Of a DNA stretch of 64,000 nucleotides, positions 38,033 through 63,255 are shown one piece after another (position 1 is the stretch's first letter; each line of letters starts with the position of its first letter). The position numbers and the translations under genes were made by a program. The stretch is taken from positions 64,001 through 128,000 of IMG/VR virus record IMGVR_UViG_3300032038_000003; one strand, given 5' to 3'. The notes under the pieces are model-generated. The model was not told the DNA's origin. It was given only the letters and a program-made list of their open reading frames with translations, and searched no databases. The stretch comes from a virus. Lineage: Duplodnaviria > Caudoviricetes.

Positions 38033-38917
38033 TTATATTCTAACTAACATTCCTGTTTTTACAACACCAGTAACGGCTCCAGACTTTTTCGTACTAAATT
38101 TCCAACCACGACTATCTTCTCCTCTGTAATAAAGAGTAGATTTTTGTACCCATGCTGGAATCTTTTTGCCGTTATAATATGTATCTGTTAATAGTTTAAT
38201 TTTATCACCGATTTCAAGTTTTGTCTCTTTTTTTATAGGATAAACCAATTTGCCATCGGAATCAAATACGTAATATCCAGGATGCTTATCGCATTCTTTT
38301 TTCGCATTTTCAATTTTTTCATATGCCCCGATTTGATTTTTGGAATCTTCCCATGAAGTTCTTACACGATAATATTTTTTATCTTGAGATGGTTTAACTG
38401 GATCTGGTGTATGGAGAACACAGTCCAAAACCATTCCTTGGTCGTATTGTGTAAGGTTGTGAGAGTTAATAACTCGTTTAATGTTTTGTGGATATGCAAG
38501 AGAAGTATAGTATTTACATTGACCAAGTACCTCTATAAACTTAATTGGATCCGTAATATTTTGTCTTACTGGATCGTAATTGGAAATAGAAATAAATTCA
38601 AAATATCCTTTTACGCCATCCTCCATATTACGGAACTTAAACCATTGATCAGTAATATCATAGTAAGAGCCATCTGGTCTTTGTTCTTTACTACCATCTA
38701 CAAATGTTCCACATGCAGATGGACATCTGTTACTTCTATATTTCAGTCCAAAATAGTTATTGAATTGGGCTTTATAACTTGTACCGTAACCAGATTCTAA
38801 ACAAGCCTGAGCGATAATCGGGCTGGCTACTTTATATCCGTTTTGTTTAGCGTATTTTTGTACAAGCGGACCGATTTTAGAAATAAAAGATTTCATAGTG
38901 TCAAAATCTGCTGCCAT
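38033..38917 (-). CDS. GH73 glucosaminidase-type lysin with C-terminal cell-wall-binding module
   Basis: IIAQACLESGYG, NNYFGLK, YYT...Y; YRVRTSWEDSKNQIGAY...GYYVFDSDG; start at ATG 38917 after AGGAGG. Confidence 0.88.
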   Translation of the reverse strand: MAADFDTMKSFISKIGPLVQKYAKQNGYKVASPIIAQACLESGYGTSYKAQFNNYFGLKYRSNRCPSACGTFVDGSKEQRPDGSYYDITDQWFKFRNMEDGVKGYFEFISISNYDPVRQNITDPIKFIEVLGQCKYYTSLAYPQNIKRVINSHNLTQYDQGMVLDCVLHTPDPVKPSQDKKYYRVRTSWEDSKNQIGAYEKIENAKKECDKHPGYYVFDSDGKLVYPIKKETKLEIGDKIKLLTDTYYNGKKIPAWVQKSTLYYRGEDSRGWKFSTKKSGAVTGVVKTGMLVRI

Positions 38918-38946
38918 TTTTGAACCTCCTTTTATTTTTAAAATGC

Positions 38947-41220
38947 TTATAAAGTAGTAAATTCTAACTTGTAACTGTTTAAAATTGGCGTAAGCCAATT
39001 ATCATGTTTAGTATTTCTTCTGAGTATAGCTTTTAATCGTATCTGTGATCCAAAACTTGGATAACTGATTTCGATTTTTTGAGTAGGTGCGATTGGCTTA
39101 TTAAAATACAAGTATCTCCCATTAGTATAATACTGTATTTTATTTGTGTTTGCAACGAAGTTCTTGAAGCTGCTTGCTGGGTTGAGTTTATCAGTAACAC
39201 ATTCAATAGATTTATCTGATAATGCACTAGCAGTGTTTTGATTAAGAACTAAGTTTGTATCGACATTGACGATTTTTACGTAAGTCATTGTATCATCTGG
39301 ATGCTGACGATTGTAGTAAGGATATTCATCAAGACGATAACAAGCAGATCCTGTACCAATAATTTCTTGGAAAGTATTACTTGGCTGAGGATTTTCGTCG
39401 TTAATAAGAGTAATCTCTTTTGAAGTATCTAATGGCATATAAGACACAGTATAAATTGCAAAATTATCAAATCCAGCAATTTCAATTGCATGTACATTAC
39501 CGTCATCATCGTATCTTAAAATATAGTCGGCATCTTCTGTTAATACGATATCGTTGTAATATACGATTGGACGTTCCATTACTGTTGTTTCTTTACCGTT
39601 AGCATCGTAAGTAATAATATTACCACAGACAGCTTTATGTCTTAAGTAGCAATATGCATAGTCAAGCTGAAGAAGCTCGTGGTAAACGTAGTCCTTATTA
39701 GATGGACATATAGGAATCCAATCATTATATTCTGGGTTACGTTTTGTTGTAACATAAAACTCTATATCTGTAAGTATCTGTTGATCTGAAGATAATGGAT
39801 GTGTTTCGTCAGATACTAATTTAATAGTATCTACAGAACCATCACATTCAATAACCTTAGATACAAATACACCAGCTCTTTGATATTCTGAGAAGCAAGG
39901 AGCAATGTTATAAAAGCCATAATTGTATTGATACTTGGTTACTGGTAAGTATTTCTCTTCGTTTTCGATTAGTAATTCATTAATATCAAGAAGTTTATTG
40001 GTTATCATCTTGTTATTAATATACTTCCAAACATTACTTTCTAATCCTCTATCAAGATACAATGGCTGGAAAACAGTAGAATTATCCATTTTAATTTTAT
40101 CGTTTAGCTCATAAGTCGCATTAAACCAGAGTTCGTTTTTGAACATCTGATTTGTAGAAAGCATATATGTATCTTTAATGCAATGGATCTGATTGATTAA
40201 GATATATAACTTCTTACAAGTAATGGTTTTAAAGTGAAAAGCATATTCTTTATCAATACTTGTAGTAGCTAATAATTCATTTTCGTTACCTGGATAGATA
40301 ACGTCATATATAGTATCATCTTCATCATCAGATAATTGATATCTCATTGCTACGATATCAATTGGAAAGTTACCATATGGCTTTAAAATTAATTCGTTTA
40401 CGTTTGTTAATGCTTCAAATGTAAGACATATTTCGCATAATGCTCCTCTTGGAAGATTATAATACGAACGATTAGTATCATATAAACCATCTGAGTTTGT
40501 AAAGTTTAATCCTTTGATCTTAATTTCTTGATTAGTTAAGATTGTTTCTGACCAGTAACTAGAGTTACTAGTATCTATTGCGTTATCCAATTTGGTTTCA
40601 GAATTACGTGCTACTATAAAGCCAGCACCGTATTGTTTAGTAATACTAATTTCTCCTAACTGTACACCAGATTTATATACCATAACATTCTGTTGACGTG
40701 TATAGTTAAGAGTGATATTCTCTTGATCTGAATTAAAACGGACATATGTATCTTCTGGCATTTTCTCGCCATAACGTTCCGTATAATACATTTTATCCGT
40801 TTCTTGATTGTTAATAGTACGTAAACCTTCGTAATAGCATTGTGGAGCACCTTCAGTTCCAATAACAGCTTCGCAAGCAGTAAGCTGGTCATTTAATTCA
40901 CCAATAGTAGAATGTAATGTAGTAATAATACTCTCGTTTAATTTCTGGTGAGACTGAAGTGTATTATATAAATTATCAATATAATAAAATGTCGTAAGAA
41001 TATCCAAGTATAATTCATAAGCTGTCTGGTTATAATCATATGCATTGGTTAAACCAGACTGTTCTCTAACGGTGGTTGTAAGCTTGTTATTCTGTAAATT
41101 AGATAACAGTTTACGCTTATATAGGTCTTTTTCTTTAGAAGTCATATAACGCATATCAATTAATTGTTCTATAACTTCATTGACCATTTTTTCTTTTAAT
41201 TCATTTAAAGAAGTGATCAT
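38947..41220 (-). CDS. Virion structural protein (paralogous family)
   Basis: NAIDTSNSSYWSE; C-terminal TPILNSYKLEF. Confidence 0.6.
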   Translation of the reverse strand: MITSLNELKEKMVNEVIEQLIDMRYMTSKEKDLYKRKLLSNLQNNKLTTTVREQSGLTNAYDYNQTAYELYLDILTTFYYIDNLYNTLQSHQKLNESIITTLHSTIGELNDQLTACEAVIGTEGAPQCYYEGLRTINNQETDKMYYTERYGEKMPEDTYVRFNSDQENITLNYTRQQNVMVYKSGVQLGEISITKQYGAGFIVARNSETKLDNAIDTSNSSYWSETILTNQEIKIKGLNFTNSDGLYDTNRSYYNLPRGALCEICLTFEALTNVNELILKPYGNFPIDIVAMRYQLSDDEDDTIYDVIYPGNENELLATTSIDKEYAFHFKTITCKKLYILINQIHCIKDTYMLSTNQMFKNELWFNATYELNDKIKMDNSTVFQPLYLDRGLESNVWKYINNKMITNKLLDINELLIENEEKYLPVTKYQYNYGFYNIAPCFSEYQRAGVFVSKVIECDGSVDTIKLVSDETHPLSSDQQILTDIEFYVTTKRNPEYNDWIPICPSNKDYVYHELLQLDYAYCYLRHKAVCGNIITYDANGKETTVMERPIVYYNDIVLTEDADYILRYDDDGNVHAIEIAGFDNFAIYTVSYMPLDTSKEITLINDENPQPSNTFQEIIGTGSACYRLDEYPYYNRQHPDDTMTYVKIVNVDTNLVLNQNTASALSDKSIECVTDKLNPASSFKNFVANTNKIQYYTNGRYLYFNKPIAPTQKIEISYPSFGSQIRLKAILRRNTKHDNWLTPILNSYKLEFTTL

Positions 41221-43987: not shown

Positions 43988-45265
43988 TTAATAATATACT
44001 GGGCAAAACGCTTTAGCGTATATGTCACAAACAAGATATCCGTCTAACATTTCATCTGTTAACTGGTTTTCATTGGTTTGAAATACAAGCTGTAATTTAT
44101 TATTATTCTGCTGTATCGCTTCAATGTAACCAGCTATCGTTAACCGAGGAATTAGCGGATACATGAACGGTTTGAACTCTGTACTGAAATTATCCATGTG
44201 AGGTAATGGCTGCTTGATTTTTACACCATTACGCTCATATTGCAAATAAAACTTGAAGATAACTTCTGTACTAGTAGCAATATCAACCGCTCTTTTTAAG
44301 AATTTATCAAGAGTGGCTTGTGATAAAGTAAGATCAGCAATTCTTGTATCTTGGTCTGAACGAATATATAAGTCTCTAATAGACCACATATCGGTATTAA
44401 CAAATGTGTAGCACTGATTTGCAATATCAATGAGTTCTTGTATGTTTTCTTTTTTGACATAATTAGTATCTATATAATTAGTATCTATATAATTAGTAAG
44501 TTCTGTAACGGAATTATCAAATACAGTATCTGTATATTGTTTTGCACGTAATAAATACTCTTCGCATTTTTCTAATACGTATTGATAAATAGCATCAATA
44601 CGCTGATTGATTGTAACCAATTCGGCATTAATTCTATCGATTTCTGTTTCAGTATCTCTGATATATTTTTCAATATCTTGTCTTATCTGTTCTGTGATTT
44701 GATTAATCTTAGGTTCAAGAGTATCCAGGATACCAAGATCAATACTTGTTTTATCACCAGTATATTCAAGAATATTAAGAAGGTCTTTATTTGCATGGGT
44801 GTGATTATACACATCTGTACGTTCTATTTGTCCTATAATAGTAGATAAGATACCATCTAAACCTCTGATATCACTAATTTCGTGTTCATGTTTAATAGGT
44901 TTTCTAGCATCATATAATCTTGGATCATTACCTTCACATGCTGTATTTGCAGTGTTACCAAAGTTAACATTAAATGCAGAAAGCTTGGGAGAGATTAATG
45001 GTTCTCCACCCAAGTCTTCAAGAGTAATGCTAACATCTCCAGTTCTTGTTTCTCCGTTTGGCAGAGTAATACTAAGAACACCCAAAGAGTTATAATCCAT
45101 TTCTGTTCTTAATCTATCAACAGCTTCACGAATTATATACTCTTTGGATCCTTCAAGAGCTTCGTTAGAATCTCTAAAATATTCTTGAATGATATTTAAT
45201 AAGTACTTCTCTACGGAATCCGTAGATTTAATATACATATTATTTTGAAGTTCTTCTATTCTCAT
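43988..45265 (-). CDS. Tail fibre-like protein
   Basis: TGDVSIT, EGNDPRLYDAR, HEHEISDIRGL, HTHANK. Confidence 0.65.
   Translation of the reverse strand: MRIEELQNNMYIKSTDSVEKYLLNIIQEYFRDSNEALEGSKEYIIREAVDRLRTEMDYNSLGVLSITLPNGETRTGDVSITLEDLGGEPLISPKLSAFNVNFGNTANTACEGNDPRLYDARKPIKHEHEISDIRGLDGILSTIIGQIERTDVYNHTHANKDLLNILEYTGDKTSIDLGILDTLEPKINQITEQIRQDIEKYIRDTETEIDRINAELVTINQRIDAIYQYVLEKCEEYLLRAKQYTDTVFDNSVTELTNYIDTNYIDTNYVKKENIQELIDIANQCYTFVNTDMWSIRDLYIRSDQDTRIADLTLSQATLDKFLKRAVDIATSTEVIFKFYLQYERNGVKIKQPLPHMDNFSTEFKPFMYPLIPRLTIAGYIEAIQQNNNKLQLVFQTNENQLTDEMLDGYLVCDIYAKAFCPVYY
44459..44498. repeat. In-frame 15-bp tandem repeat (about 2.7 copies)
   Basis: ATAATTAGTATCTAT x2 plus ATAATTAGTA; encodes TNYIDTNYIDTNY. 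Confidence 0.9.
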
Positions 45266-45666
45266 ATGGCAGCAACCCTTTGTGTATTAATTTTATCCAT
45301 GTCACTAAGTTCTTTATAGATGGACTTATAGATTTGTTCGTTTTCTGCACTCAGTTTAGTGACTTTTACTCCATTCATATATTCTTTAGTAACTTTAGTA
45401 ATCTGTCTAACCTTTGTTAAGACAGATTCTATTTCACCATAACTTGTAAGATAAGGTTCGTAATAAAGTTTATGGAGCTGCGATACAGCACCAACAGAAT
45501 GATAGTTATCCCATTCTGTTCTAATATAATGAAGTCTTCCCTGGTCATTCCAATCGAATGTGAGGTAAACAGTGTCAAGTGGTTCTATGACCTTTACTAC
45601 TTTATCTTCTTGAGCACGATCCCTAACTATAATAGTTAATCCATCGTCATCGCCTACCTCTATACT
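45262..45666 (-). CDS. Start-less 134-codon frame, probable +1 frameshift extension of the 45665-46321 gene
   Basis: Opens at TTT-CCC-TAG; reads SIEVGDDDGLTIIVRDRAQEDKVVKVIEP...TQRVAAI*; its TGA overlaps the next ATG. Confidence 0.75.
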   Translation of the reverse strand, partial: SIEVGDDDGLTIIVRDRAQEDKVVKVIEPLDTVYLTFDWNDQGRLHYIRTEWDNYHSVGAVSQLHKLYYEPYLTSYGEIESVLTKVRQITKVTKEYMNGVKVTKLSAENEQIYKSIYKELSDMDKINTQRVAAI

Positions 45667-46321
45667 AGGGAAATCTCATAAGGTCTGGATTTGTAAGTCC
45701 ATAATTAGCTTCGACTTGTGCATCCCAGTAAAGAATACCATATCCATTAAGTACAGGATATTCGTTTAACTGATTAGGAGTAAACTGAGCAACCAAAACG
45801 AAACCTTGTGTAATGTTCTTTGTTAAATGTAATGGCAATTTAATCTGATTAGCTTCGATAGGCCATCTTTCGCCAGTATACATCTCAAGATAGTATTTGA
45901 TAGAAGCACCTACTGGAACTTCTTGACTTGTTACCAAGAAGAAATCATTCATTTCAATATCTGCACCATGAGGGCTATATATTCTGACAGATTTGAATTC
46001 TCCAGGCTTCGATTTATCTTTTAATGATACTTGGCTGGTTTTTTCTAAAATACATACATTGTTTGAATCAGTAAGATTGATTTTTTTACCGTCTTGGAAA
46101 TAATCAATCGAACATGAATTACAATATAAGTTGTTATCTAAAATAGTATAAACCCTTTCTTCAAAGGCTTTATCTTTAACATCATTTGTTTCCTGTTGAG
46201 TAGCGTTAACATCTTGCTGTAATGAATTTACGGTTTGAGCATTAACCCTTTCACTAGACTCGTTAACGTGTCTTTTGTATTGGGTATATTGTCTTTTGTT
46301 GTTGTTTTCATTCATTGCCAT
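45665..46321 (-). CDS. Virion structural protein ending at a CCC-TAG frameshift site
   Basis: Beta-rich (VPVGASIKYYL...W, YPVLNGYGI); ends MRFP*. Confidence 0.7.
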   Translation of the reverse strand: MAMNENNNKRQYTQYKRHVNESSERVNAQTVNSLQQDVNATQQETNDVKDKAFEERVYTILDNNLYCNSCSIDYFQDGKKINLTDSNNVCILEKTSQVSLKDKSKPGEFKSVRIYSPHGADIEMNDFFLVTSQEVPVGASIKYYLEMYTGERWPIEANQIKLPLHLTKNITQGFVLVAQFTPNQLNEYPVLNGYGILYWDAQVEANYGLTNPDLMRFP

Positions 46322-46336
46322 AGCGTATAACCCTCC

Positions 46337-46828
46337 TTAAATAATGACGTTATGGTTTCCGTAAGTATAAGTATCAGCAAAGATCGGTTTGATTCTAATC
46401 TGGCAGTTAGATTCAAGTGGATAAGTTCTTGTAATCATATCTCTAAAATACTCAACTCGTATTTTGTCGTTTAAATCAAGAGGTTTAAGGTTTTTATCAA
46501 TAGTAATAAATCTATTATATTTATTATATTGATAATAAAGAGTATTCAAAACAGCGTCATTAATATATACCTTGAACTTATGATCTCTGTCGGTATATAA
46601 ATCTTTAGGTAATTCCCATGTATAGTTATCATTATATTCAAGGTCTATACTGGTACGCTCAACATTTGGTTCAGAAGGATTATCGAAAGCGTCTATGAGT
46701 TCTTCACGAATACCAGAAGAATAATTATCATCTGGAAATAAACCATAGACTTCATATCCTTGAACATGCTTATTATTAAGCCTTTTAAATGTAATTGTCT
46801 TTGTTAATAATGCTGGGATTAAAGACAT
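46337..46828 (-). CDS. Structural module protein
   Basis: FKVYIND...LNDKIRVEY motif, also seen in the larger tail proteins. Confidence 0.6.
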   Translation of the reverse strand: MSLIPALLTKTITFKRLNNKHVQGYEVYGLFPDDNYSSGIREELIDAFDNPSEPNVERTSIDLEYNDNYTWELPKDLYTDRDHKFKVYINDAVLNTLYYQYNKYNRFITIDKNLKPLDLNDKIRVEYFRDMITRTYPLESNCQIRIKPIFADTYTYGNHNVII

Positions 46829-62436: not shown

Positions 62437-63255
62437 TTATAAAATTACTACATTATCTACGTCATTAGATAAAGTAAATCTTTCAAACCATCTTGATGTT
62501 TGATTCGTATATAATGCTTTTTCGTTATTGATGTAAAACTCTTTGTTTTGTTCCTGGATGATATATGGACTTACATCCATTATGATCTGAGTCATCTTAT
62601 CTATATTGAACATCTCTCCAATCTTAAGATTAGAAAGATAATCCATAACGACTTGCTGTACTTCGTATTTAATATCTTGTTTGTCGTTATCCGATATATT
62701 ATTGGCAAATGATAATTGCTGTGTAAGTTTAATATAGTTTAAAGTAGGACTTACTACATTATAACGAATACCATATCCATGAACATCTTTAAGACGTTCA
62801 TAGACGTTATCTAAAACATCTTGAGGAGTTACATCTTTATTAGTAAGAACGATTACTGTAAAAGAACCAGCCCCCATTGAATACGGCTGTAATATAACAT
62901 CCTCAACGCCATCAGTTGTAAGAGCTGTTAATCTTACAGCTGTATAATTAGAAGTAGCAAGAGTTAAGCATTGATTGGTAATTCTTGCTCTATAATTATC
63001 ATCAGATTCATTGTCGAGTCTTGTACACTGCAAAAGGCTACCAATAGCATCTAAAGCGTCGTTATCTGCTGTAGTAACGAATGCTCTTAAATGATTGATA
63101 GTCAATGTTGTATATAGATCAGCGATACTTGAATTGATAATATTTAAAAATAATTTTGCAATACTACCAGGACTTGAGTTAAAGCCTATGGCATTAAGAG
63201 CCTTAACACCTTCTTCTGATAGTTCATTAAAGGTTTTTGTATTTAATACGATCAT
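62437..63255 (-). CDS. Baseplate J-like protein
   Basis: PGSIAK, TA...LDAIG, ESDDNYRARI, GVEDV, GAGSFTV, YLSNLKIGE. Confidence 0.85.
   Translation of the reverse strand: MIVLNTKTFNELSEEGVKALNAIGFNSSPGSIAKLFLNIINSSIADLYTTLTINHLRAFVTTADNDALDAIGSLLQCTRLDNESDDNYRARITNQCLTLATSNYTAVRLTALTTDGVEDVILQPYSMGAGSFTVIVLTNKDVTPQDVLDNVYERLKDVHGYGIRYNVVSPTLNYIKLTQQLSFANNISDNDKQDIKYEVQQVVMDYLSNLKIGEMFNIDKMTQIIMDVSPYIIQEQNKEFYINNEKALYTNQTSRWFERFTLSNDVDNVVIL

Follow-up and report, generated by a model that had tools for sequence, protein, structure and literature searches.

Can a gene of an uncultured phage be continued past its stop codon in another reading frame, and if so, are both of the resulting products used? 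The question is raised by a locus in the IMG/VR record IMGVR_UViG_3300032038_000003, a single-contig genome of 210,314 bp with a guanine-plus-cytosine (GC) content of 34%, of which a stretch of 64,000 nucleotides (64001-128000 of the genome) was analyzed. This stretch is called the window below; position numbers refer to it unless the genome is named, and the genes of the region lie on its minus strand. An open reading frame (ORF) of 218 amino acids, here called ORF0, ends with ATG AGA TTT CCC TAG and is followed by an apparent gap of about 400 bp. The initial annotation, made from the letters of the window, proposed that the gap holds an extension of the gene reached by a programmed +1 frameshift at CCC-TAG, and the layout on which it relied was recovered in full. 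The +1 frame, which reads ...TTA TGA GAT TTC CCT AGT ATA GAG GTA..., is closed just upstream by a TGA two codons before the site, which leaves a possible shift window of only 11 nt; it then stays open for 134 codons, has no ATG until near its last third (the first canonical start is an ATG at codon 96), and ends in a TGA whose overlap with the start codon of the next gene reads ATGA. Ribosomes reading through the TAG would meet another TGA after five codons, so readthrough would yield nothing (Table 1). Comparison with relatives strongly supports a programmed +1 shift at this site, and we consider it probable that this is one gene in two frames which, by way of the shift, yields two products that are both used, one of 218 and one of 352 amino acids.

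Conservation of a coding frame beyond the stop

Scans of viral and metagenome contigs recovered 31 loci, 30 of which hold both halves of the gene; these 30, at 50 to 96% amino acid identity, provide 25 distinct junctions. The C-terminal part lies one frame ahead of the N-terminal part in all 30, with the change of frame at the same codon. Extensions are open in all of the 24 distinct relatives, over 119 to 143 codons and with no internal stop, and they begin with the conserved sequence S-I/V-E-V/I-G-x-D-D-G-L-T-I-I-V-R-D-R-A-Q, conservation setting in at the first codon past the shift. Conservation at codon positions 1, 2, and 3 is 0.83, 0.93, and 0.63 in frame 0 upstream of the stop and 0.81, 0.90, and 0.59 in frame +1 downstream of it, third-position variability switching from the one frame to the other exactly at the stop. 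The ratio of nonsynonymous to synonymous substitution rates (dN/dS), computed against the window, is 0.04 to 0.19 for the extension and 0.04 to 0.17 for the N-terminal part, at dS values of 0.5 to 1.5. These comparisons establish, at the level of sequence, purifying selection in both frames and the two-frame architecture together with its conservation. A stop-free frame of 134 codons in DNA of this GC content would arise by chance with a probability of about 4e-5, as estimated from base composition, and given the comparative data chance is out of the question as the source of the open +1 frame.

Given the periodicity, the dN/dS values, the open frames, and the scattered positions of possible starts, assembly errors, decay to a pseudogene, readthrough, and separate initiation are all untenable as explanations for the family at large. 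One window taken alone could not exclude a one-base sequencing or assembly error in its run of C or T, an outcome that the initial annotation had itself named as fatal to its proposal. However, independent assemblies from JGI, ENA, and NCBI, metagenomes among them, yielded 25 distinct sequences that differ at many synonymous positions but share the split layout, and an error of this kind is thereby excluded. Since both parts are under purifying selection and no extension contains a stop, a decaying pseudogene is no better an explanation; to an indel artifact or a pseudogene we assign practically no probability. Reassignment or readthrough of the TAG is just as hard to credit. Some large gut phages do recode TAG, but here TAG terminates 21 of the 175 genes of the genome, TGA takes its place at the site in four loci, and no suppressor is present among the six tRNAs that the phage carries (Glu, Gln, Asn, Met, Lys, and Thr, clustered at 14.4-22.7 kb of the genome). 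In every locus the zero frame closes again 4 to 15 codons past the stop, and the periodicity marks frame +1, not frame 0, as the coding one.

It is also very improbable that the locus comprises two separate genes, the second begun at a noncanonical start or by reinitiation after the TAG. In four loci (L001, L007, L022, and L028), the extension does contain an ATG or TTG, nine codons from its beginning. This start is absent, however, from the window and from most loci, in which the first start falls at codons 22 to 122, and no Shine-Dalgarno sequence precedes it; the nine residues ahead of it (S-I/V-E-V/I-G-x-D-D-G) are conserved, and the continuous homologs described below contain them in frame. 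The first canonical start of the extension frame thus ranges in position from codon 9 to codon 122 among the loci and none is conserved, so that the independent start which the initial annotation regarded as a possible refutation did not emerge. In the window sequence, the extension frame has no counterpart to the Shine-Dalgarno sequence of ORF0.

Table 1. Features of the frameshift locus in window coordinates
Feature	Position	Strand	Remarks
Shine-Dalgarno sequence of ORF0, AAGGAGGG	46331..46338	-	strong; 9 nt 5' of the ATG; read from the sequence
ORF0	45665..46321	-	218 amino acids; TAG stop included in the coordinates; would be the short product
TGA closing the +1 frame	45676..45678	-	two codons 5' of the site; read from the sequence
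Shift site TTT CCC TAG	45665..45673	-	E-, P-, and A-site codons; from the sequence and relatives
+1-frame extension	45262..45666	-	134 codons plus TGA (45264..45262); predicted beta domain and C-terminal helix
Next zero-frame stop, TGA	45647..45649	-	five codons past the TAG (TAT AGA GGT AGG CGA TGA)
Next gene	43988..45265	-	425 amino acids; tail-protein-like N-terminal part; begins MRIEEL; ATG at 45265..45263

Codon choice at the shift site and the proposed slip

Pro is encoded by CCC at 24 of the 25 distinct junctions and by CCT at one, and the Phe before it by TTT at 24 and by TTC at one; TAG serves as the stop at 21 and TGA at 4, and TAA does not occur. Genome-wide, CCC accounts for 45 of 1935 Pro codons (2.3%), and TAA ends 124 of the 175 ORFs (71%), with TGA ending 30 and TAG the remaining 21. 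The gene under study is the sole one of the 175 to end in CCC-stop. No second gene of this kind was found in the genome, where the long +1 or -1 extensions past other stops all run on into the next gene. Third positions of the TTT and CCC codons are 96% conserved, against a mean of 63% for other third positions, and comparison of the junctions in this way establishes selection on the shift site at the nucleotide level, simple binomial figures for which would be overstated because the loci are related. The residue after the Pro is variable in continuous homologs and may be K or N, so a TAA at the site would be tolerable at the protein level.

By analogy with SPP1, the Listeria phages, PhiC0139, and pheL of Escherichia coli, we infer that the shift proceeds as follows. 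At UUU-CCC-UAG, the P site of a ribosome translating ORF0 would contain peptidyl-tRNAPro paired with the rare CCC, its A site would face a stop that is decoded slowly (UAG or UGA), and a fraction of the ribosomes would slip one base forward. The tRNAPro would re-pair from CCC to CCU, the T at 45667 would be skipped, and AGU would be read next, after which the slipped ribosomes would continue for 134 codons. Each of TAG and TGA is read by one release factor only, which may favor slow termination. The predicted fusion (P0003), translated with CCCT read as one step, has 352 amino acids, and its predicted tryptic junction peptide is FPSIEVGDDDGLTIIVR. The 218-amino-acid product would consist of a helix and a jelly roll, to which the longer product would add a beta/helix domain; both would most likely become parts of the virion, in its baseplate/fiber region, and the frequency of slipping would determine their ratio. 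Of other routes into the extension, transcriptional slippage is unlikely on TTTCCC, and a -2 shift would put the tRNAPro on TTC.

A parallel in codon context is E. coli pheL, in which UUC_CCC_UGA supports a 15% +1 shift that needs the penultimate Phe, UUU being equally good, and for which the 3' sequence is irrelevant (PMC3082878). The Phe-Pro-stop context is the same here. The pheL shift is incidental and gives no useful product, whereas the shifted frame at our locus encodes a conserved domain. RNAalifold found no consensus structure in the region from -60 to +120 around the site, and single-sequence z-scores reached only -0.7 to -1.6. The lack of a conserved RNA structure fits the irrelevance of 3' context in pheL, and by this analogy an RNA stimulator would not be needed for the shift.

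The Arg codon before the Phe is less uniform, being AGG in 9 junctions, CGA in 5, CGC and CGT in 4 each, CGG in 2, and AGA in 1, with AGA in the window and AGG accounting for 4.9% of Arg codons genome-wide. In the loci associated with AGG (L004, L010, L012-L016, L018, L021, and L031; window position 45674-45679, minus strand), this codon gives a GAGG 3 nt 5' of the shift codon as well as the TGA that closes the +1 frame. The Shine-Dalgarno-like stimulator of prfB has the same spacing. AGG could be a lineage-specific enhancer, not conserved family-wide. A shift of the prfB type, as in release factor 2 (RF2), was itself rejected, as the Shine-Dalgarno-like GAGG is present in 9 of the 25 junctions and CGN or AGA stands there in the others, and the product is not a release factor.

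Continuous homologs and the possible role of the short product

A search of the fusion against 5.8 billion proteins returned 463 homologs, the best 120 of which supplied the class counts given here. At least 91 clusters belong to a split class of 217 to 219 amino acids that covers only the N-terminal part, at 59 to 92% identity; among the matches listed, these proteins end in RFP in 90 clusters and in RLP in one. A continuous class, represented by 30 clusters among the matches listed, comprises proteins of 311 to 363 amino acids that cover 88 to 99% of the fusion at 45 to 61% identity. The continuous proteins align with the fusion with no gap where its two halves meet and read RFPSIEVG.DDG straight through, as in DLMRFPSIEVGTDDGITILVRDRAQEDK. 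Because this peptide is the one predicted from a +1 slip on CCC-T, the continuous homologs support the frameshift. The initial annotation had counted single-ORF homologs as evidence against its proposal; such homologs do exist, but they read RFP-SIEVG.DDG as the slip predicts, and the split form is conserved in its own right. The profile phrog_28136 (283 positions) spans both frames, matching ORF0 over its positions 23-197 and the extension over 204-278. Used as queries, the continuous homologs found either nothing or split loci already known in viral contigs and had no match in prokaryote genome contigs. Among 50,697 phage records, neither a DNA search nor tblastn with the extension found a match, and the fused protein had a lone weak match there, ORF167 of 0305phi8-36. 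Pfam contains no family that matches either half or the neighboring genes.

Phylogenies of the N-terminal domain showed split and continuous forms interspersed. A FastTree phylogeny of 121 rows required 10 parsimony changes of state, at least 4 of them forced by well-supported branches, and an IQ-TREE phylogeny of 84 rows required 9, at least 3 of them forced. A tree with all continuous forms in one clade was rejected by the approximately unbiased (AU) test (delta lnL 116, p = 0.004); the clade was chosen after the first tree had been seen, and the test does not cover recombination. These repeated changes of state count in favor of an alternative in which the shift is real and needed but only the 352-amino-acid product matters, a one-base insertion having been fixed either as a translationally compensated indel, tolerable because CCC-stop allows ribosomes to pass in sufficient number, or as an expression throttle, and the 218-amino-acid product being a by-product. 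The continuous homologs likewise indicate that the long form suffices, and the caution in the pheL study that high CCC_UGA shifting can be incidental (PMC3082878) counts for this alternative too. However, deletion of a single C would restore a single ORF, and yet the split is kept in 91 of the 121 clusters listed, at dS above 1; its retention through saturating synonymous divergence argues for selection to keep it. The short form also stops precisely at a domain boundary, like that of the SPP1 pair gp17.1/17.1*. We regard it as unlikely, on balance, that the short product is a by-product, and it presumably has a function of its own.

Several observations weigh against two used products made by slipping at CCC. 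Continuous clusters are interspersed with split ones, so some lineages manage with the long form only, and the short one may be dispensable. F217 and R216 are invariant in the continuous homologs too, so that conservation of the Phe before the Pro is no evidence of selection for shifting. None of the six tRNAs of the phage is a tRNAPro. Finally, the junction at L012:655-670 (JAEEGL010209982.1, 1416 bp) reads TTT CCT TAG, at which re-pairing would be poor, and the extension of this locus is intact despite the CCT. It may be that this CCT is a sequencing error, that it is a poorly shifting variant, or that it is a sign that re-pairing is not strictly required.

The interspersion of the two states leads to one further, and doubtful, possibility, which is that the CCC-stop acts as an evolutionarily labile stoichiometry switch, lineages toggling by single-base indels between the long form only and the short form plus the long one, in a host-dependent ratio. 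Several continuous forms read RFP-S or RFP-E, as expected from a one-base deletion in CCC-TAG-Y or CCC-TGA-G. The ratio in the split state would then depend on host tRNAPro, on the release factors RF1 and RF2, and on the status of elongation factor P (EF-P), and so might any translational coupling to the next tail gene by way of the ATGA overlap. If a switch of this sort exists, it would tune the composition of the baseplate/fiber region to the host.

Probable virion placement and known frameshift systems

The domain structure was assessed on a continuous homolog, P0010, modeled with AlphaFold2 from an alignment of 52 rows (mean predicted local distance difference test score [pLDDT], 78.6). 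On its N-terminal side, the model has a disordered N terminus, a long helix (residues 28-63), and a jelly roll at about residues 69-200 (pLDDT mostly >90); on its C-terminal side, a low-confidence linker (211-230) leads to a beta domain (230-312) and a helix (319-337). The shift position falls inside the linker, between the two domains, and according to this model the short form ends at a domain boundary. The jelly roll weakly resembles carbohydrate-binding sandwiches and others like them, namely, the PNGase C-domain, CBM6, and Cry domain III (Foldseek E 4e-4 or weaker). Its best match among viral structures is the 591-amino-acid protein A7KUU1, which has the same length as gp167 of 0305phi8-36 and may be the same protein. 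The extension modeled alone had a pLDDT of 74.6, and its fold had no interpretable match (best VIA Z 4.7, best Foldseek E 0.2).

Columns 10-202 of the N-terminal family match residues 5-195 of gp167 of Bacillus phage 0305phi8-36 (hhalign probability 96%), and the annotation of gp167 describes a virion protein detected by mass spectrometry. The product of the frameshift gene is thus probably a virion structural protein. The structural block in which the gene lies (window 38947-63255, minus strand) is syntenic with ORF163-171 of 0305phi8-36; a 757-amino-acid protein of the window matches gp171 over its full length at 26% identity, a 2240-amino-acid protein matches phrog_21285, and a baseplate-wedge (gpJ-like) gene lies upstream at 62437-63255. 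The frameshift gene itself is downstream of the genes for the giant baseplate-zone proteins. This synteny, together with the PHROG matches, makes placement in the baseplate/fiber region reasonable, as the initial annotation had suggested, and the matches of the structural block indicate that the phage is a distant uncultured member of the 0305phi8-36 lineage. More distant matches of the block are to Moorella phage MTATph1 and jumbo Bacillus phages. The gp167 protein has a homologous N-terminal helix and jelly roll in the same slot of the ORF163-171 block, but it is a single 591-amino-acid ORF with another C-terminal part and no frameshift, and identity is only about 22 to 25%.

The locus has the features of the shifty-stop class, namely, a +1 overlap without an initiation signal of its own, a rare CCC followed by a stop that begins with T, and selection in two frames. 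The precedents named in the initial annotation are documented. Gene 17.1 of SPP1 undergoes a +1 shift at CCCUAA with a 3:1 ratio of products (PMC6316719), and the likeness is close, as here too a rare CCC before a stop would give way to a frequent CCU and a C-terminal domain would be added to a virion protein; in gp17.1/gp17.1*, two products are made in a fixed ratio, and the short form ends at a domain boundary, as it is predicted to do here. In contrast to SPP1, the stop is TAG or TGA and never TAA among the 25 junctions, the protein is unrelated and belongs to the baseplate/fiber zone of a 210-kb myovirus-like phage rather than to a tail tube, the extension is not FN3 and has no recognizable fold, and the shift is a predicted one. 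The tsh gene of Listeria phages PSA, A118, and A500 shifts +1 at CCC_UGA (PMC5009743) and is similar in having a Pro codon plus stop in a tail structural gene, in low-GC hosts with rare CCC. Four relatives of the gene studied here use a CCC_TGA of this type, although the protein family and the location in the virion are different. An identical shifty stop, CCC.UAG, gives the MTP-TpeX fusion of the lactococcal 936-group phage PhiC0139, which was found in virions by Western blotting (PMC4759559). PhiC0139 is a small siphovirus in which the major tail protein is concerned, and the case is confined to a few phages, whereas the site studied here is conserved across no fewer than 91 protein clusters in a lineage of jumbo phages. 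The tail chaperone frameshift of Lambda G/GT was rejected as a model, as the direction here is +1, there is no heptamer, and the giant baseplate-zone proteins are encoded upstream of the gene.

The mechanism is therefore already known, and what is new is the protein family and the phage lineage in which CCC-stop +1 frameshifting is found. A conserved domain of 134 amino acids has been missed by gene callers, and the "gap" of about 400 bp is misannotated in at least 91 protein clusters. The lineage, distantly related to 0305phi8-36, consists of widespread uncultured phages of about 210 kb, and metagenomes are the source of many related contigs. The junctions also provide a deep natural alignment of a CCC_UAG/CCC_UGA shifty stop, with a pheL-like context, avoidance of TAA, and no RNA stimulator. 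Together with the repeated switches to an in-frame fusion, this alignment should help in addressing what determines the efficiency of such sites and whether selection acts on the short product.

Two minor observations concern the neighboring genes. The ATGA overlap between the extension and the 425-amino-acid gene is found in most loci, the ATG elsewhere lying at most 21 nt away (window 45262-45295, minus strand), and a Shine-Dalgarno-like AAAGG or GGAGG sits within the 3' end of the extension. Translation of the 425-amino-acid gene could be partly coupled to frameshifted ribosomes. Inside the virion structural block, a protein of 321 amino acids (window 38033-38998, minus strand) has endolysin/endopeptidase-like PHROG matches, by which it may be a tail-associated lysin.

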